Part shown: in pieces, positions 1,684-58,521 of the stretch | Position numbering within the stretch: the stretch's first letter is position 1 | Layout of the letters: each line of letters starts with the position of its first letter | Program-made: the position numbers and the translations under genes | The notes under the pieces: model-generated | The model's database searches: none | Told to the model about the DNA's origin: nothing | What the model saw: only the letters and a program-made list of their open reading frames with translations | Assembly (NCBI GenBank): GCA_045628525.1 | Contig: JAZQPJ010000034.1 | Span: forward strand, 4,061-68,060 | From: Bacteroidales bacterium | GTDB taxonomy: Bacteria > Bacteroidota > Bacteroidia > Bacteroidales > UBA3663 | Length of the DNA: 64,000 nt | Direction: 5' to 3'

Positions 1684-3027
1684 TCATGATGCCTTGTTCT
1701 GATCGCTGATAGACAGCGCAATAATGATGGTCAAGCCGCCGCCATCGGTTTCTTCGGCCACGGCACTTCCACCATATTGCACGGCGATGTTCTTGACGAT
1801 GGCAAGGCCAAGACCAGTGCCACCTAACTTGCGGCTTCGCCCTTTATCGACGCGATAGAAGCGCTCGAAGAGGTGGGGGAGGTGTGCAGCAGGTACGCCT
1901 ACGCCATTGTCGCTGAACGTGAAGATGTAGTCAGATGACGTCATTGCAGCAGATACCGTGAAGCGTGTGGCACCCATGGCGTATGCCAGTGTGTTGTCGA
2001 AGATATTGCGAAACAGGGAGTAAATCAGGGCGGAATCGCCTTGCATGGGCATTGAACCAGGGAGCGAAAGCATATCGAGTTCAATGCCTTGTTCTGTGAA
2101 TTTGGCTTTTGTCTCGTCGGCGATGCCTTGCAGGATTTCTGCTGCATCGACTTTGGTCGTAGGGCGTACGATGGCGGCTTCGTCCAGACGTGTGAGCATG
2201 GACATGTCCTGTAGCAAGCGGCTCATGCGCTGGCTTTGCGCATAGCAGCGTGTGAGGAAAGACTGCCGTTGTTGGGCAGAAAGTGAATCGCCGGCAGAGA
2301 TCATCGTCTCAAGGTAGCCTTCGATGGCGGCAGCCGGCGTCTTGAGCTCGTGGGCGGCATTTTCGGTGAGCTGGCGCTTGATGCGACGCTTGTCCTCCTC
2401 GCTGCGATGCAATCTGAACCGAAGATAAAGCACCACGGCTATGAGCACGAGGATGCCTGCGGTGTAATAGAAAAAAGTGTAGTCGCGTTCGAGCGAAGAG
2501 GTAAGAGGGGCGGAATAGGGTACGGACGAGCGGATAATAAGACCCTTTCCCCAACCCTCCTCTGCACCCCTTCTATCCCCCGAACAGCGGGGGCAGAAAT
2601 CCGTAATCGGGAGGGAGTATTGGTTACTATCTATAGCGAAATAGGTTGCCGAATAGAAATACTTTTCACCATTGGTTTCGGACGCTCGCTTAATGTCAAA
2701 TCCAGAACCATACTGAAGGGCATCCTGAATCTCCTTGCGGAGAAGGTGGTTGCCCATTTTCTTTACATCTTTCTCCTGGCTATCATAGAGCACATTTCCT
2801 TCAGTGTCAATTATTGTGATGCGAAATGTGGTATCTATTTCTCCCTCCCCATTACGGGTGAGGGTTGGGGAGAGGGTCCTATAGTTATTGAGCTGCAGCT
2901 GCGAGTGCAGGATATCGACGCGAAACGCATGTTCACGCTGGTATTCATACACGCCGAAGCTGATGGTAAACAATGCCACCAGCAGCGTAACAATCAGAAA
3001 CAGATTATTTTTCGAACGAATATCCAT
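1684..3027 (-). CDS. Sensor histidine kinase (two TM segments, periplasmic sensor region, HisKA + HATPase_c)
   Basis: H-box ENAAHELKTP and G-box GGTGLGLAIVKNI. The start was chosen at MDIRSKNN (ATG 3027, overlapping the regulator's 3' end); ATG 3057 is an alternative. Confidence 0.85.
   Translation of the reverse strand: MDIRSKNNLFLIVTLLVALFTISFGVYEYQREHAFRVDILHSQLQLNNYRTLSPTLTRNGEGEIDTTFRITIIDTEGNVLYDSQEKDVKKMGNHLLRKEIQDALQYGSGFDIKRASETNGEKYFYSATYFAIDSNQYSLPITDFCPRCSGDRRGAEEGWGKGLIIRSSVPYSAPLTSSLERDYTFFYYTAGILVLIAVVLYLRFRLHRSEEDKRRIKRQLTENAAHELKTPAAAIEGYLETMISAGDSLSAQQRQSFLTRCYAQSQRMSRLLQDMSMLTRLDEAAIVRPTTKVDAAEILQGIADETKAKFTEQGIELDMLSLPGSMPMQGDSALIYSLFRNIFDNTLAYAMGATRFTVSAAMTSSDYIFTFSDNGVGVPAAHLPHLFERFYRVDKGRSRKLGGTGLGLAIVKNIAVQYGGSAVAEETDGGGLTIIIALSISDQNKAS
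2541..2617. repeat. C-tract/G-tract palindromic element (long form) inside the kinase sensor region
   Basis: GACCCTTTCCCCAACCCTCC...CCCCCGAACAGCGGGGG...CCGTAATCGGGAGGGAG. It is read through in frame. Confidence 0.75.
2841..2879. repeat. C-tract/G-tract palindromic element (short form, inverted relative to 2541-2617)
   Basis: The reverse complement reads GACCCTCTCCCCAACCCTCACCCGTAATGGGGAGGGAG, with the same termini as the long form. Confidence 0.75.
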
Positions 3028-3739
3028 AGCCGAACCTTGTGCGAATACATTTGCCATATTGTCCGATCTTCTTGCGCAGACGCGTGATGTTGACATCCAC
3101 CGTGCGGTCGAGCACGTACGCATCATTTGGCCAGATGCGTGTCAGGATCTCCTCGCGAGAGAAGACGGTGTGTGGGTGTTCCAGGAGCAAATCAAGCAGC
3201 TCATATTCAAGCTTTGTGAGCGTCACCTCCGTACCATCCACATGGCAGGTCTTTGCCAACGTATCGAGCACCAAACCCTCATAACTCACCTTATTGTCGC
3301 TGTTATTTGTTTCTTTGGCAGGGAGCTCTTTATCTTTTTCACTCTTTACCTCTTTCGCTTGCTGAGATGCAGCGCGGCGAAGCACCGCCTTGACCCTCGC
3401 CTTCACCTCACTCAATCTGAATGGCTTCGTGATATAGTCATCCGACCCCAGCGAGAATCCGTCCAGCACATCCTTCTCCTCGGTCTTTGCCGTGCAGAAG
3501 ATGATGGGGATTGCTGCCAACGCCGCATCCTGTTTCATCAGTTTGGCCACCTCAAACCCGCTGAGGCCCTCCATCATCACGTCGAGCAGCACTAGGTCAA
3601 ATGCCTCGGCCTTGAGCATGACAAGCGCTTCCTCGCCCGATGCCGCGGTCTCGACCGTGTACCCTTCCGTCTGGAGGTTATACTGCAGGATGTCGCAGAT
3701 GTCCTGCTCATCATCCACTATCAAAATTCGTTCGTTCAT
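3005..3739 (-). CDS. OmpR/PhoB-family DNA-binding response regulator
   Basis: Receiver domain (ILIVDDEQDI, LLDVMMEGLSG) and a winged-helix C-terminus (LTKLEYELL...VDVNITRLRKKI). The start was set at MNERIL because a -7 box lies inside the longer ORF. Confidence 0.9.
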   Translation of the reverse strand: MNERILIVDDEQDICDILQYNLQTEGYTVETAASGEEALVMLKAEAFDLVLLDVMMEGLSGFEVAKLMKQDAALAAIPIIFCTAKTEEKDVLDGFSLGSDDYITKPFRLSEVKARVKAVLRRAASQQAKEVKSEKDKELPAKETNNSDNKVSYEGLVLDTLAKTCHVDGTEVTLTKLEYELLDLLLEHPHTVFSREEILTRIWPNDAYVLDRTVDVNITRLRKKIGQYGKCIRTRFGYGYSFEK

Positions 3740-3758
3740 AGTTCCATGTTTGTGGGTG

Positions 3759-3766
3759 CAAAGATA
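3759..3766 (-). promoter_or_regulatory. Bacteroidetes-type -7 promoter box (TATCTTTG) for the response regulator/kinase operon
   Basis: Matches the TAnnTTTG consensus about 20 nt upstream of ATG 3739. Confidence 0.5.
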
Positions 3767-3913
3767 ATACATTTTTGTTACAAAGTTGTGACGAATGCCT
3801 GGGAAGTGAATTTTTTTGCTAATCGCACACTCTATTTTCGCGTATTTTAGTCAAAATTGCATTCATTTCATCCATTTAGTTCTCAAAACTGCGGAACTTT
3901 GAAGAAAAAGACT

Positions 3914-3983: not shown

Positions 3984-4223
3984 ATGGCAACATTGGCAAT
4001 ACAACCCGAAGCAAATCAGATGGTCGTTACATTCAGCGATGTTAGCGTTATGCAGCAAGTAAAGAAAGCCATCGCACTTATGCGAGGCGTAAAATCGGTT
4101 ACTATGCCTCGCAAGAAGCGTATGTGCGGCCTTGATCTCGCCTTGCAGGACGTAGAAGAAGGACGTGTAACTCGGTGGAATAGTGTGGAAGAGATGTTTG
4201 AGCACTTGAATAAAGAGGATTGA
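3984..4223 (+). CDS. Putative type II antitoxin (DinJ/RelB-like C-terminal segment)
   Basis: A 79-aa ORF ending 3 nt before a YafQ-family toxin gene. Its C-terminal ...QDVEEGRVTRWNSVEEMFEHL resembles the DinJ tail. Confidence 0.65.
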   Translation: MATLAIQPEANQMVVTFSDVSVMQQVKKAIALMRGVKSVTMPRKKRMCGLDLALQDVEEGRVTRWNSVEEMFEHLNKED

Positions 4224-4226
4224 TCC

Positions 4227-4499
4227 ATGTACACAGTCATCACTTCAAAAGCTTTTGAGAAGGATTATAAAAGGTGCCAAAAGCGAGGCTTGAATATTCG
4301 ACTACTTCAGGAAGCAATCACCCTTCTGGCCAATGACGGAAAACTTCCACCAGAATATCGCCCACACATCCTAAGCGGCAAGTATGCCGGCATCTGGGAA
4401 TGCCATATCAAGGGTGACTGGCTCATGACATGGCGACAGTATGATGACCGTCTTGAGCTGCTCATGCTCAATACGGGTACACATTCCGACTTATTTTAG
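4227..4499 (+). CDS. yafQ: Type II toxin, YafQ/RelE family mRNA interferase
   Basis: 90 aa, collinear with E. coli YafQ (KDYKRCQKRG..., ECHIKGDWLM..., C-terminal NTGTHSDLF versus TGTHAALF). Confidence 0.85.
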   Translation: MYTVITSKAFEKDYKRCQKRGLNIRLLQEAITLLANDGKLPPEYRPHILSGKYAGIWECHIKGDWLMTWRQYDDRLELLMLNTGTHSDLF

Positions 4500-4570: not shown

Positions 4571-6253
4571 TTACTTGTTCACAGCAGCTTCTGCCTGCAC
4601 CACATTGATCGCATAGTCGCCTATCTTCTCGCATTCGGCAATGAAGTCGTTGAAGAAGGCGCCGAGGCGGTAGCTGTACTTGCCCTCGTTCACGGCGATG
4701 AGGTTCTCCTCGCGGCTGATGGTGCGCAGGGAGTTGATCTCGTTTTCTGCCTCGATGTTGTCGCGCAGATTGATTACCACGTGTTCAGGGTCGGTGATCA
4801 CCTGACGCATCTCATGCAGGGCGCGCTCGGTGAGGTCGAGCATCTGGGTCATCTGCATCTTCTGGTAGTCGGTGAAGTCGCTCGGCTCATTCTCACGCTT
4901 GCGCTGCAGGGTACGGCCGAGGTGGAACATCGAGTCTCCGATCGACTCCAGCTCGTCCACCTGTCGCAGCATCTGGGCGATGTGGTTCTTCGAGTAAGCC
5001 GAGAGCCTGCCCTCCGACACCTTGCGCAGGTAGCCGGCAATCTCCACCTCCATGTTGTCGGTGATCTGCTCGTAGTGTTCCAGTCGCTTGTATTCCTCGG
5101 CAAAGTCGCTCTCCTTCTTGGCCGAAAGGGCGCGGTTCACCATGTCGAGCATCTTCTGGCAACGCTCGGCCATGACACCCACCTCGTTGCGTGCCTGCAG
5201 GATGGAGAGCTCGGCCGTAGAGAGCAAGCCGCCGCTGATGTAGCGCAGACGTGTCTCCTCCTGCGTCTCCTTCTGAGGCAGCACGCGGCACACCAGCTGC
5301 TCAATCTGCTTGACGAAGCCAATCAATAACAAGGTGTTGAATACGTTGAATGCCGTGTGGAAGGCCGAGAGCTTGAAGAGGTCGTTGTTGCCAGCGCCCA
5401 TCACATGCTCCACGAACCATGACACGCCGTTGCAGAACGGATAGAACATCAGGAGCACCACCACCACGCCGAACACATTGAAGAACATGTGCGCGAGTGC
5501 CGCGCGTCGTGCCTGCGTGTTGGCGGTCAGGGAGGCGATGAATGCCGTGATCGTCGTACCGATGTTCTGACCCATGGCCAAAGCCGCTGCCTGCTCAAGG
5601 CCGAAGCCGGGGATCTGCATGTCGAACAGCATCAACGTGATGGCCATCGTGGCGGCCGATGCCTGAACGAGCATGGTAACCAATGCACCCACTACCACGA
5701 AAAGCAAGATTGTGAGGAAACCGCCATCGGCCACGCCTGCCAGCATCTGTGCCACCAGTTCGCCGATGTTCAGATCGGTGGCCGATTGCTGCAGGAAACT
5801 CAAGCCCATGAACAGGAACGAGAAGCCGAAGATGAACTCGCCGATCGACTTGCGATGCGAATTGCTGCTGAAGATGAGCGGAATGCCAAAGGCAAGCAAC
5901 GGCAACGCCAGGGCGGCGATATTGACCTTGAAACCGACAGCCGAGATGATCCATGCCGTCACCGTGGTGCCCACATTGGCACCCATGATCACGCCGATGG
6001 CTTGTGCCAGCGTCATCAATCCGGCATTGACAAACGAAACGACCATCACCGTGGTGGCCGAAGAGGATTGGATCAAGGCGGTCACGGCAATGCCCGTGAG
6101 AACACCCATCACACGATTGCGCGTCATGGCAGCCAGGATGCTGCGCAGACGATCGCCAGCAAATTTCTCAAGACCCTCGCTCATCGTCTTCATGCCGAAG
6201 AGGAAGAGTGCCAGGGATCCGATCAGGGAGAGGAGATTCAGAATTGTATCCAT
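4571..6253 (-). CDS. Na+/phosphate cotransporter family protein (NptA/YjbB type) with a C-terminal PhoU-like helical domain
   Basis: Duplicated Na_Pi_cotrans motifs (QSSSATTVMVVSF, GANVGTTVTAW; GQNIGTTITAF) and a long helical C-terminal half. Confidence 0.9.
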   Translation of the reverse strand: MDTILNLLSLIGSLALFLFGMKTMSEGLEKFAGDRLRSILAAMTRNRVMGVLTGIAVTALIQSSSATTVMVVSFVNAGLMTLAQAIGVIMGANVGTTVTAWIISAVGFKVNIAALALPLLAFGIPLIFSSNSHRKSIGEFIFGFSFLFMGLSFLQQSATDLNIGELVAQMLAGVADGGFLTILLFVVVGALVTMLVQASAATMAITLMLFDMQIPGFGLEQAAALAMGQNIGTTITAFIASLTANTQARRAALAHMFFNVFGVVVVLLMFYPFCNGVSWFVEHVMGAGNNDLFKLSAFHTAFNVFNTLLLIGFVKQIEQLVCRVLPQKETQEETRLRYISGGLLSTAELSILQARNEVGVMAERCQKMLDMVNRALSAKKESDFAEEYKRLEHYEQITDNMEVEIAGYLRKVSEGRLSAYSKNHIAQMLRQVDELESIGDSMFHLGRTLQRKRENEPSDFTDYQKMQMTQMLDLTERALHEMRQVITDPEHVVINLRDNIEAENEINSLRTISREENLIAVNEGKYSYRLGAFFNDFIAECEKIGDYAINVVQAEAAVNK

Positions 6254-6255
6254 AT

Positions 6256-6302
6256 TTTCAAATTACAGATTACAGATTTCAGATTACGAATTACAAATTA
6301 CG
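6256..6302. repeat. Heptamer tandem repeat (GTAATYT/GAAATCT x6-7 on the gene strand) filling the 5' leader of nptA
   Basis: The gene strand reads CGTAATTTGTAATTCGTAATCTGAAATCTGTAATCTGTAATTTGAAAAT-ATG. The 18-mer at 6256-6273 is identical to 57896-57913. Confidence 0.85.
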
Positions 6303-6314
6303 TTATTGACGCTG

Positions 6315-6322
6315 CAAAGATA
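6315..6322 (-). promoter_or_regulatory. -7 promoter box (TATCTTTG) for nptA
   Basis: Matches TAnnTTTG, which places the heptamer repeats in the transcribed leader. Confidence 0.5.
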
Positions 6323-6424
6323 TTACAACAATGTTACAATTTTATGACAAATGCTAAAAAAATGCGCAAATACCCTATTATTAGATCTTATAGTGGTCGT
6401 TTTTGTCTGTCCTCCTCAAAAAAA

Positions 6425-14874: not shown

Positions 14875-15160
14875 TGCAATAGTCCGACTTGGATCTGAGT
14901 CGGACTATTGCAGATCTGCAAAAGCATGTCGCAAGACAGAATATGTAATTGTAAATCTGCAGCAGTCCGACCTGGATCCAAGTCGGACTGCTGCGGCTCT
15001 TCAATAGTCCGACTTGATACCGTGTCGGACTGTCGCGCGTTTGCAATAGTCCGACTTGGTACCGTGTCGGACTGTCGCACGTTTGCAATAGTCCGACTTG
15101 GGTTCAGGTCGGACTGTCGCGCGTTTGCATTAGTCCGACTTGGGTTCAGGTCGGACTTTT
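14875..15160. repeat. Array of six palindromic units (AGTCCGAC-N10-GTCGGACT); the last four are in exact 42-bp register
   Basis: Left half-sites at 14881, 14964, 15006, 15048, 15090 and 15132. A conserved 16-bp linker GTCGCRCGTTTGCAAT separates units; the first two stems extend to 13-14 bp. Confidence 0.9.
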
Positions 15161-39737: not shown

Positions 39738-39975
39738 GTTCTTCGATTCGAGACGTCGAAAAGCATGTCCGGAATCTTGGCGAAGGAATTCGAGTTGTCG
39801 AATAGTTTGTCCGGACCTTGTGACAAGGAATTCGAGCCGTCGAAAAGGCTGTCTGGATTCTTGGACAAGGAATTCGAGCCGTCGAAGAGCCTATCCGAAA
39901 CCTCAGACAAAGATTTCGAGCCGTCGAAAAGCATGTCATAGAACTCTGGCAAAGATTTCGAGACGTCGAACTCTA
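39738..39975. repeat. Tandem array of about 5.6 units in exact 42-bp register (ATTCGAGCCGTCGAAAAGSMTGTCYGGAWYCTTGGMCAAGGA)
   Basis: TTCGAG anchors at 39747, 39789, 39831, 39873, 39915 and 39957. Each unit carries TTCGA-N4-TCGAA and CCTTG/CAAGG mini-palindromes. Confidence 0.9.
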
Positions 39976-53652: not shown

Positions 53653-54090
53653 AGCGGTGGCATGTCGAAAGAGATGGAAAAAGCGCTGAAAATGTGCTGA
53701 AAGTTCGCAAATCCATTAGGAATGCCTCTGCAAGTGTGCGGAAGGGCGGAAAATGATTTTTTGCGGCTCAGCAGATCTGCGGAGGGTTTCCAAAAGTTTT
53801 TTTTGCGGCTCCGCACGTTTGCGAAAGCTCTACAAAAAGTTTTTCTGTGACTCTGCAAATCTGCGGAAGCTCTCCAAAAGTTTTTCCAAGGCTCAGCAAA
53901 CTGTCGGAGCTCAGAAAATGTTTTAGCGAAGGTTTTGCAGGTTTGCAGAGGCATTCCTAAAGATTTTGTGTCCGCTCCGCATGTTTGCATCACCTTTTCG
54001 ATGCGATTTGCAGATTCAGTGCGAGCTCGCATCACCTTTTCGATGCGATTTGCAGATTCAATGCAAGTTCGCGTCACTTTTCCTGATGCT
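53653..54090. repeat. Degenerate tandem array of about 10 units holding a 40-42-bp register; the last 2.5 units are near-identical (GCATCACCTTTTCGATGCGATTTGCAGATTCARTGCRAGYTC)
   Basis: Unit anchors at 53695, 53737, 53778, 53820, 53862, 53904, 53944 and 53986/53987, then 54029 and 54071. The final unit runs into the 3' end of the DUF2851 gene. Confidence 0.8.
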
Positions 54091-56408: not shown

Positions 56409-57881
56409 ATGGGAAATAAAGAGCGCGGCTTCGGCCGCAAGATGACGACAGGCGACAAGGTGAAGCTCGCGATCTGGGTGGTGCTGATCATCCTGTTTGG
56501 TGTGTGGATGGCATCGTGGATTCCATTCCTGGCCATCCTCTATGTGCTGGACCTCTACTGGTGGCATTTCATCAACTGGGATTGGTGGAAGGACATCAAG
56601 AACAGCCTGCTGCGTAATGTAATGTCATGGGTGGATGCCATCGTGTTCGCCCTCTGCGCCGTATGGGTACTGCAGAACTTCTTCTTCCAGAACTTCCAGA
56701 TCCCTACCACATCGCTCGAGAAGACGATGCTGGCAGGTGACTATCTGCTGGTGTCGAAGTATCACTATGGACCTCGTGTGCCGATGACTCCGCTGTCGTT
56801 GCCCTTGTTCCAGCATTCGATCACCATCGGCAGCAAGAACCTGGGCAAGTCGTACATCGAGAAGCCGCAGGTGAACTACCGCCGCATGCCGGGCCTGACC
56901 GATATGGAGCGCTACGACATCGTGGTGTTTAACTATCCGAATGGCGACACCGTGTGCACCAAGTGCGAAAATCCGGATTACTACTCGCTGTGCAAGGCAT
57001 ACGGCCGCGAGCGAGTGTGGAACGACAAGAAGAACTTCGGCGACGTGGTGTATCGCCCTGTGGATCGCCGCGAGAACTATGTGAAGCGTCTGGTAGGCAT
57101 GCCAGGCGAAACACTCCAGATCATTGATCGCCAGGTGATGATCGACGGCAAGAAGCTGGAAGATCCAAAATACCTGCAGCATCGTTATCTGGTGCTGGGC
57201 AAGGGTCCGATCACCGAGACCTACTGGCGCAAGGAGCTGGGCGTCTATACCAAGGGCAATGGCGCGACGCTGGATCGTGACGTGGAACTGGTGCAGGATG
57301 CTTCGCTCTATGAACACCTCGGCATCGAACCCGACAGCGTGACCAAGATACTGCCTCCGCTCTACATGGCCAACATGACCCGTGAGATGGTGGAGAAGCT
57401 GGAGAAGAGCGGCAAGGTGCAATGGGTGCAGGACTATTCGAATGTGTTTGTTGACACTCCGGGTGTCGTCTATCCACAGAACGAGCTGTCTGATTGGACA
57501 TCGACCAACTTCGGCCCGCTCTGGATACCCAAGCGTGGCGCATCGATCAAGCTGACCGACGACAATGTGATGCTCTACGGCCGCTGCATCCGCTCGTATG
57601 AGCAGAACCTCAAGACCGGCAAGGGCCAGGGCAACGAGCTGGTGCGCGTGGCAAAGGACAAATACGAGCTGAACGGCGAGCCTGCTGCAGAATATACCTT
57701 CCAGATGGATTACTTCTGGATGATGGGCGACAACCGCGACAATTCGCTCGACTCGCGCTTCTGGGGCTTTGTGCCTGAGGATCATATCGTGGGCACTCCG
57801 CTCTTCGTGTGGTTCTCAATCAACCAGGAGACGGGCGAGTGGAGGTCGGATCGATGGTTCAAGCAGGTCAAGGGACTGTAA
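56409..57881 (+). CDS. lepB: Signal peptidase I (long Bacteroidetes form)
   Basis: The SLEKTMLAGD serine box and GDNRDNSLDSRFWGFV box E. Confidence 0.9.
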   Translation: MGNKERGFGRKMTTGDKVKLAIWVVLIILFGVWMASWIPFLAILYVLDLYWWHFINWDWWKDIKNSLLRNVMSWVDAIVFALCAVWVLQNFFFQNFQIPTTSLEKTMLAGDYLLVSKYHYGPRVPMTPLSLPLFQHSITIGSKNLGKSYIEKPQVNYRRMPGLTDMERYDIVVFNYPNGDTVCTKCENPDYYSLCKAYGRERVWNDKKNFGDVVYRPVDRRENYVKRLVGMPGETLQIIDRQVMIDGKKLEDPKYLQHRYLVLGKGPITETYWRKELGVYTKGNGATLDRDVELVQDASLYEHLGIEPDSVTKILPPLYMANMTREMVEKLEKSGKVQWVQDYSNVFVDTPGVVYPQNELSDWTSTNFGPLWIPKRGASIKLTDDNVMLYGRCIRSYEQNLKTGKGQGNELVRVAKDKYELNGEPAAEYTFQMDYFWMMGDNRDNSLDSRFWGFVPEDHIVGTPLFVWFSINQETGEWRSDRWFKQVKGL

Positions 57882-57915
57882 TTCTAGATAATTACGTAAT
57901 CTGTAATTTGAAATC
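57878..57915. repeat. Heptamer-repeat element in the wbqC leader
   Basis: GTAATTCTAGATAATTACGTAATCTGTAATTTGAAATC. Positions 57896-57913 are identical to the nptA leader 18-mer. Confidence 0.8.
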
Positions 57916-57921
57916 AACAAT

Positions 57922-58521
57922 ATGGTCGTATTGCCGGTAGCATACTTTGCGCCAATATCATACTATGCAACGATGTTTCAGTCGCCCGAAGTGGTGATTG
58001 AGGCACAGGAGCATTATGTGAAGCAGAGCATTCGCAACCGCTGCGTGATCGGAACAAACCAAGGGCCGCAGACATTGAGCTACAGCGTGCAGAAGGGTAA
58101 CAAGCTGAAGATGCCAATCCGCGAGGTGCTGCTGAGCGACCACGGCAACTGGATGCACCAGCATCTGTATTCGCTGGCCACTTATTACGGCAACTCGCCA
58201 TTCTATGAATACTACATCGACGAACTGCGCGAGGTGATGCAGCATGGACATGACGGCACGCTCTTCGGATTCAACGAAGCCCTGCGCCGCAAGGTGTGTG
58301 AACTGATCGGCTTTGAGCCCAACGTGCGCTATAGTGAACAGTGGATGGGAGGCGTGGATGCCGATATCACCGAGGGTGTCACCATCGACACAACCCCTTA
58401 CTATCAGGTGGCGACCGTAGGCACCAGACAGCCTTTCATGGCCAACCTGTGCATTTTGGACTTGCTCTTCAATATGGGAAATGAGAGCATCCTCTATCTA
58501 AATCAATGGAACAGAGACTGA
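57922..58521 (+). CDS. WbqC-family protein
   Basis: 199 aa with the N-terminal YFAPISYY... and KQSIRNRC motifs typical of the WbqC-like family. Confidence 0.8.

Follow-up and report, generated by a model that had tools for sequence, protein, structure and literature searches.

A heptanucleotide repeat in the leader of a Bacteroidales phosphate transporter gene and its turnover among close relatives

Results

The heptamer array of the nptA leader

The window analysed here, a 64,000-nt stretch of a contig from an uncultured Bacteroidales bacterium, carries on its minus strand an nptA-like gene and the gene of a PhoB response regulator and, on its plus strand, a porin gene and a PHO4 transporter gene (Table 1). 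Read directly from 6301 to 6251, the minus strand gives GTAATTT GTAATTC GTAATCT GAAATCT GTAATCT GTAATTT GAAAAT ATG, in which the six heptamers account for about 42-48 nt, or three quarters, of the ~57-nt nptA leader. The preliminary description of this DNA had the tract fill the whole leader; the repeat is real, but neither the first ~9 nt (GTCAATAAC), which presumably follow the transcription start of nptA, nor the last 6 nt contain units. Tandem Repeats Finder (TRF) describes the tract as period 7 with 5.7 copies, 84% matches, and a score of 52, and a per-leader repeat test shows the leader to be clearly repetitive (p<0.005). The tract is thus a member of the long heptanucleotide simple-sequence repeats, with at least three units arranged head to tail, beyond what is expected by chance.

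Matches to the repeat unit are far more frequent in the window than in shuffled sequences (11-15 found, 0.05-0.9 expected), and the 18-mer GTAATCTGTAATTTGAAA alone, when up to 3 mismatches are allowed, has 11 matches against 0.05 expected. This 18-mer occurs exactly at 6256-6273 (minus strand) and again in the lepB-wbqC spacer, and the recurrence in the same orientation relative to the gene, which had been pointed out before, is borne out: both copies are in gene sense, 2 nt 5' of the ATG of nptA and 8 nt 5' of that of wbqC (57922). Across the leaders and intergenic DNA of the window we found no general 7-nt periodicity, and in the per-leader test the leaders of porin and wbqC come out as marginal (p ~0.04) and that of PHO4 as not significant.

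Table 1. Positions of the repeat tracts, promoter elements and associated genes; coordinates are those of the window unless a relative is named.
Feature	Position	Strand	Basis
Six tandem GTAATYT-type heptamers, nptA 5' leader	6260..6301	-	sequence, TRF, shuffles, per-leader test
GAAAAT, non-repeat tail abutting the nptA ATG; sets A at -3	6254..6259	-	sequence; role of A at -3, PMC6847099
nptA-like gene, 560-aa ORF, Na/Pi cotransporter + PhoU	4571..6253	-	Na_Pi_cotrans and PhoU domains; NCBIfam Na/Pi symporter
Bacteroidetes-type PhoB response regulator	3005..3772	-	NF053854, 316 bits (cut-off 270); Pfam Response_reg, Trans_reg_C
Bacteroidales -7 promoter box TATCTTTG	6315..6322	-	kept in L123, L124, L126; TAATTTTG in L125
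Pho-box-like element, candidate PhoB operator: direct half-sites TTGTCATAAAA TTGTAACATTG, 11-bp period	6329..6350	-	invariant alignment block
Third unit TTGTAATATCT, overlapping the -7 box	6318-6328	-	11-bp period
Second exact 18-mer (GTAATCT GTAATTT GAAA), lepB-wbqC spacer	57896..57913	+	exact match
GTAATTC unit whose TAA (57879-57881) is the lepB stop codon	57878..57884	+	sequence, gene calls
GTAATCT GTAATCT GTAATTT G, antisense in Porin_O_P gene (11453-12538 +); KLQITDY	12355..12376	-	
GTAATCT GTAATTT GTAATCT GTAATTA, antisense in PHO4 transporter gene (12578-14848 +); NYRLQITDY	13456..13483	-	
21-nt in-frame porin array, three heptamers	12355-12376; L123 6552-6572; L124 8729-8749		

Copies at other loci of the window

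The second intergenic tract lies in the 40-nt spacer (57882-57921) between the signal peptidase I gene lepB (56409-57881) and a WbqC-family gene (57922-58521). The earlier list of copies was correct for the two leaders but missed two antisense coding tracts, one in the porin gene and one in the PHO4 gene, so that the window tracts are two intergenic and two in-frame within genes, antisense. A tandem heptamer translated in any frame gives one cyclic 7-residue peptide, and the tracts inside genes are antisense because the sense strand of GTAATYT has TAA in all three frames. The NYRLQITDY peptide encoded by the PHO4 tract falls in a variable loop of the transporter. We also observe that the hexapeptide LQITDY is encoded in one and the same frame in the porin and in PHO4.

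All four tracts have in common the 15-mer GTAATCTGTAATTTG, which is present in 9 of 130 tracts from other genomes among the matches listed, and they are therefore not independent products of slippage: either the four tracts were copied from one another or GTAATCTGTAATTTG is under selection. Three of the four are located in or beside three phosphate-uptake genes, within 7 kb and with one absolute orientation. Copying over short distances from array to array would account for both the shared 15-mer and the clustering, although the clustering could also result from the function of the phosphate genes rather than from their physical proximity within 7 kb.

Promoter and candidate PhoB operator

The -7 box that had been placed at 6315-6322 is present and is kept in the four nptA relatives described below. 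Upstream of it, at the -35-equivalent position, the Pho-box-like element consists of two 7-bp repeats with 4-bp A/T spacers, and the pattern TGTMAY-N5-TGTMAY matches only this promoter element (6322-6349) in the window. The E. coli Pho box has the core CTGTCAT, with direct repeats occupied head to tail by PhoB (PMC4415409); the sole experimental paper on a Bacteroides PhoB that we found defines no Pho-box consensus (PMC3547664). The CTGTAAT register of the leader repeat resembles an E. coli half-site, the full architecture is present at 6329-6350, and the tract differs from the E. coli Pho box in its 7-bp period, its position within the transcribed leader, and its lack of conservation. Phosphate control of nptA is therefore most likely exerted by the adjacent PhoB at the conserved 6329-6350 element, at the -33 position 5' of the -7 box, to judge from sequence and conservation. 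The proposal that the tract itself is an operator for the adjacent OmpR-type protein fares poorly, since the tract has a 7-bp and not an 11-bp period, lies downstream of the -7 box, and is not conserved.

The porin promoter (11375-11410, plus strand) has a similar arrangement, with TTGCAACAACT TTGAAATAGGA followed by the -7 box TAATTTTG, and is kept in L121, L122, and L124.

Turnover of the tracts among relatives

Relatives were reached through homologues of PHO4 and NptA, whose named members come from 'Bacteroidaceae bacterium' MAGs and Sodaliphilus. For NptA, the contigs L123, L124, L126, and L125 show 95%, 89%, 82%, and 81% identity, respectively. In the alignment, the promoter block TTGTCATAAAATTGTAACATnnTTGwAATAyCTTTG is common to the window, L123, L124, and L126, and L125 keeps its layout in a variant form. 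Downstream of the block, the leaders measure ~150 nt in L123, ~45 in L124, ~50 in L126, and ~30 in L125, and a GTAATYT array is found in none of these four. The L123 leader contains AATCGA-type repeats in place of GTAATYT, and the L124 sequence that aligns with the window tract, GAAATTT GTAAACA GTAACTA, looks like a weak proto-repeat and suggests an origin of the window array in situ, through expansion and homogenisation. Two contigs of the same species as the window, L150 and L151, reached through the YafQ toxin, stop ~200 nt before the nptA start. A scan of metagenomes for the 20-mer TTGTCATAAAATTGTAACAT returned 17 loci, with zero nptA promoters among them. Some metagenome contigs (L134, L138, L144, L146, L149), from activated sludge and other metagenomes, carry iteron-like 11-bp runs TTGTCATAAAG TTGTCATAAAA TTGTAACATAA TTGTAACATAAAA that adjoin GCGCTAAGGTATGCGCTAT-type repeats and are unrelated to nptA.

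The wbqC tract has an equal number of units in two same-species contigs, L127 and L128 (99% WbqC identity). In relatives with 89% WbqC identity the spacer reads ATAATTC TGAAATC TGAATTA TGAATTG, with a 12-nt indel between samples, and in a 79% relative a TGATG stop/start overlap leaves zero spacer. The PHO4 tract is missing in relatives with an 89-94% identical protein, which have (Q)DYIANGQ at that loop. A frameshift was considered as the cause of the divergent PHO4 loop and was discarded, since the downstream part resembles the loops of more distant homologues, as expected for a variable loop.

The porin segment is constant in length among relatives and altered by substitutions: L121 and L122 have a non-periodic KLIISDY, L124 has RLWITDY from AGATTAT GGATTAC GGATTAC, and the window and L123 have KLQITDY from AAATTAC AGATTAC AGATTAC. 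Judged from these sequences, the three porin heptamers changed in concert. Rapid change in units or sequence between close relatives is thus seen at the nptA leader, the wbqC spacer, the PHO4 loop, and the porin array. The idea of a conserved or demonstrably portable module is not consistent with these comparisons, as the four nptA relatives (81-95% at the amino acid level) share the promoter and have unrelated leaders, and the wbqC spacer varies or is missing.

Distribution and orientation in other genomes

We scanned species-representative genomes for the three-unit pattern GWAATYTGTAATYTGTAATYT and obtained at least 120 loci, none of those listed being a close relative of the window. Among the matches listed are Bacteroidota, Acidobacteriota, Ignavibacteria, candidate-phyla bacteria, Planctomycetota, cyanobacteria, and others, several genomes have more than one GTAATYT locus, and 91 of 130 tracts have four units or more. 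The other tandem arrays in the 813 kb around these tracts are predominantly of period 7 (n=139, versus 19 of period 6, 37 of period 8, and 40 of period 9) and represent more than 40 different units.

The orientation of the tracts was tallied heuristically from simple ORF calls. Among the matches listed, ORFs contain 23 of 130 tracts, of which 22 are antisense, and the remaining 107 fall outside. Within 60 nt of a start codon, 24 tracts are forward and 19 reverse, to which ~5 reverse cases that are probable start miscalls can be added, and within 12 nt the numbers are 15 and 6, again among the matches listed. Bacteroidota examples occur directly 5' of rpmA, fabF, and other genes. The placement of the tracts is non-random, being intergenic and at gene ends; their orientation towards start codons is not clearly biased across phyla. 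Random placement and orientation had been named beforehand as what would speak against a module associated with start codons: in the matches listed from other genomes the orientation is indeed unbiased (24 versus 19-24), but the placement is not random.

Several further features of these loci can be mentioned. In L001-L120, 21 of 47 tracts are no more than 12 nt away from the stop codon of an opposite-strand gene (e.g. L004, L010, L032, L034, L046, L116), and in those opposite-strand cases that were inspected, the complement of that stop is made up of the final two array bases and an A; in four cases among the same loci, the TAA of the tract is itself the stop of the upstream gene. In Terriglobales (L011, L029, L033, L071, L074), GTAATTT arrays form inverted pairs around a ~30-nt G+C-rich core, an arrangement that is reminiscent of hairpin or REP-like elements and differs from that of the Bacteroidales tracts.

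Leader RNA

The nptA leader folds at -6.3 kcal/mol over 87 nt, no differently from shuffled sequences (z = 0.01), and the wbqC region has z = 0.54 against its shuffles. Searches of the leader against Rfam gave no match at the gathering score and none at E<=1. The leader thus lacks the marks of a structured cis-regulatory RNA, such as a riboswitch. The repeat units contain no ATG, and in both the nptA and the wbqC leaders an A at -3 is supplied by the non-repeat tail. Initiation in Bacteroidia is characterised by Shine-Dalgarno (SD)-blind ribosomes, low structure, A at -3, and depletion of AUG near starts (PMC6847099), so that the earlier remark about SD-poor Bacteroidetes with unstructured A/U-rich leaders holds for this tract. 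Since GTAATCTGTAATTTG is in the nptA leader and its complement in the porin and PHO4 mRNAs, pairing is possible over 20 nt with the porin and 15 nt with PHO4. The corresponding RNA duplex energies are strong, a trivial consequence of the repeat that these RNAs have in common, and L123 does not retain the pairing.

Short repeats and gene content of the neighbourhood

Short tandem repeats abound in this genome in general. In the window, four arrays with 42-bp units (2.3-5.4 copies) have differing unit sequences and are mostly intergenic (14964-15157, 39746-39970, 53757-53912, 53987-54082); a 33-bp tandem array at 10750-10882 (3.7 copies, 95% matches) within ORF 9597-11081 encodes GGN(V/D)G(K/E)S-type repeats; arrays of 9-bp units (445-553, 1017-1058, 1397-1471) fall within the coordinates of a glycoside hydrolase ORF (12-1634); and an 8-bp repeat (3326-3356) is located in the inter-domain linker of PhoB. 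Short A-rich repeats are found in the porin leader (11419-11447), with two copies of TTTAATCGTAAATCG, and in the PHO4 leader (12543-12576), which reads AATCGAA AATAGTA AATCAAA AAATCTA AATCAAT, and the ppk leader of L123 contains ~150 nt of 14-nt CAATCGTAAATAGT-type units. Repeat-laden leaders in relatives were counted for 6 of 24 phosphate-gene leaders and 3 of 36 others, at loci that are not independent, and their specificity for phosphate genes is unconvincing.

The order porin-ppk-ppx-PHO4 is present in L121, L122, and L123, and L126 shows porin-ppk-ppx up to the end of the contig; L124 has no ppk, and L125 has no porin, ppk, or ppx. In the window, ppk and ppx are missing and the porin-PHO4 gap is 39 nt (12539-12577). 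It looks as if the beginning of the porin-ppk spacer had been fused to the last part of the ppx-PHO4 spacer. Both are AATCG-type repeats, so that ppk and ppx may have been lost by a deletion between leaders laden with repeats.

The gap between nptA and phoB holds, on the other strand (3984-4499, plus), a type II toxin-antitoxin pair, consisting of a YafQ-family toxin (4227-4499) and a small upstream ORF (3984-4223), with its own -7 box and terminator hairpin. The pair is present in the same-species contigs L150 and L151 and missing in L123, where the gap is 94 nt.

Discussion

The closest known system is found in marine Beggiatoaceae, cyanobacteria, and some Bacteroidetes, whose genomes carry direct repeats of the heptamer TAACTGA; a part in translation has been suggested for these repeats, and their function is unproven (MacGregor 2015, PMC4679880). 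As in the window, these are tandem 7-nt units (two to six or more), intergenic, often forward and a few nucleotides 5' of a start codon; as for GTAATYT, they have stops in three forward frames, some overlap an upstream stop, and they are reversed in ORFs; and one unit is favoured per genome, as here. They differ from the GTAATYT repeats in the unit itself, in the absence of a forward bias from our cross-phyla tally, and in the rapid loss or replacement that we observe in close relatives. According to the account of Mrazek 2007 given in PMC4679880, heptanucleotides are the commonest class of long simple-sequence repeats (5-11 nt units), for which slippage was proposed; as far as this account goes, those repeats resemble the window tract in their predominant heptanucleotide period, mostly non-coding location, variability between strains, and presumed origin by slippage. 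Deletion tests of heptamers near start codons in Nostoc gave modest, unresolved effects (10.1101/2022.06.06.494920, preprint). The Mrazek survey, as summarised there, and the Nostoc work do not describe the GTAATYT unit or Bacteroidales leaders, and GTAATYT is a new unit, in a new lineage, for heptamer repeats already described near start codons. The TTTTGAT repeats of V. cholerae ctxAB likewise form an array of tandem heptamers; transcriptional regulators are recruited to it (10.1101/2021.05.14.444153), and expression varies with the number of copies. That array is upstream of the core promoter and is proven to bind protein, and neither applies to the window tract.

On balance, we favour the view that the tract is a heptanucleotide repeat generated by slippage and tolerated in the leader as a variable spacer, and not a sequence-specific operator. 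A weak proto-repeat in the ancestral nptA leader would have been the seed, and the array would have grown and been homogenised in place by replication slippage, probably together with short-range copying between nearby arrays. It would persist because it satisfies the loose requirements of Bacteroidia leaders, being A/U-rich and without stable structure, free of AUG in every register, with TAA in all three frames, and with a tail that provides A at -3. The tract would then act mainly as a spacer of variable length, by which the start codon stays single-stranded for initiation independent of SD pairing, with at most a quantitative tuning of expression, and we infer that it is neutral. The forward position of both intergenic tracts near a start codon, as in the TAACTGA system, argues against this explanation.

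The same position, 2 nt and 8 nt 5' of the ATG, would be explained by a post-transcriptional element, in which the (GUAAUYU)n RNA is bound by ribosomal protein S1, a cold-shock protein or similar, or is a ribosome standby site, and aids or regulates SD-independent initiation. The genome-specific 15-mer in all window tracts, the 15 forward against 6 reverse tracts within 12 nt of a start among the matches listed from elsewhere, the Bacteroidota tracts just 5' of rpmA, fabF, and others, and the anatomy shared with TAACTGA repeats (PMC4679880) are consistent with such a role. We nevertheless regard it as rather unlikely: the tract is unconserved at nptA and wbqC even among close relatives, the overall orientation tally is unbiased, half of the window tracts are antisense in genes and would give RNA with the complementary motif, and the dozens of unrelated heptamer units in the same genomes argue against one sequence-specific reader. 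A further version, in which GTAATCTGTAATTTG is a genome-specific element for a trans-acting factor, of the sort suspected without proof for TAACTGA repeats, that ties the phosphate-uptake genes together, and in which, more generally, heptamer arrays are SD-independent ribosome landing or regulatory sites in SD-poor phyla, is decidedly improbable in our judgement.

If the array acted at the DNA level instead, as an operator or decoy for PhoB or another direct-repeat regulator, it could provide feedback control in the nptA-phoB-phoR region. The CTGTAAT unit does resemble the promoter half-sites TTGTAAT, TTGTAAC, and TTGTCAT, the neighbouring regulator is a genuine PhoB of the Bacteroidetes type, phosphate genes hold three of the four tracts, and the TTTTGAT heptads of the V. 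cholerae ctx promoter, which are reported to recruit transcriptional regulators, are a precedent. Such an operator is very improbable, however, because a 7-bp period leaves no pair of half-sites 11 bp apart, with TGTMAY-N5-TGTMAY matching the promoter element only, the tract sits 3' of the -7 box, it is missing in four relatives that have both the Pho-box-like block and PhoB, and the GTAATYT unit also occurs in the unrelated lepB-wbqC spacer and in many phyla. The great variation in leader and spacer lengths between relatives raises the alternative of a contingency (tuning) locus, where gain or loss of 7-nt units would alter the leader length, and through it nptA expression, at high frequency within populations; the equal number of wbqC units in two same-species contigs and the fact that a phosphate transporter is an atypical phase-variable surface gene make this improbable. 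A portable cassette, moved by a mobile element or by dedicated copying, has in its favour the 15-18-mer common to four loci, but flanking inverted repeats, target duplications, and associated genes are all absent, the nptA tract aligns with a proto-repeat in L124, the porin tract is in a segment of constant length changed by substitutions, and three tracts within 7 kb in the same absolute orientation fit local copying, so that we give it hardly any credence.

If the tract is only a tolerated repeat, as we favour, it cautions annotators against calling such arrays operators or cassettes. The tract is now set apart from the probable real control element, the conserved Pho-box-like site, and the nptA locus, whose promoter is defined and whose regulator is known, and which occurs naturally both with the repeat and without it, would make a convenient test case. 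One heptamer is favoured at many loci per genome, often beside start codons, and the comparison of nptA and wbqC shows how fast the leaders and intercistronic spacers of Bacteroidales turn over.
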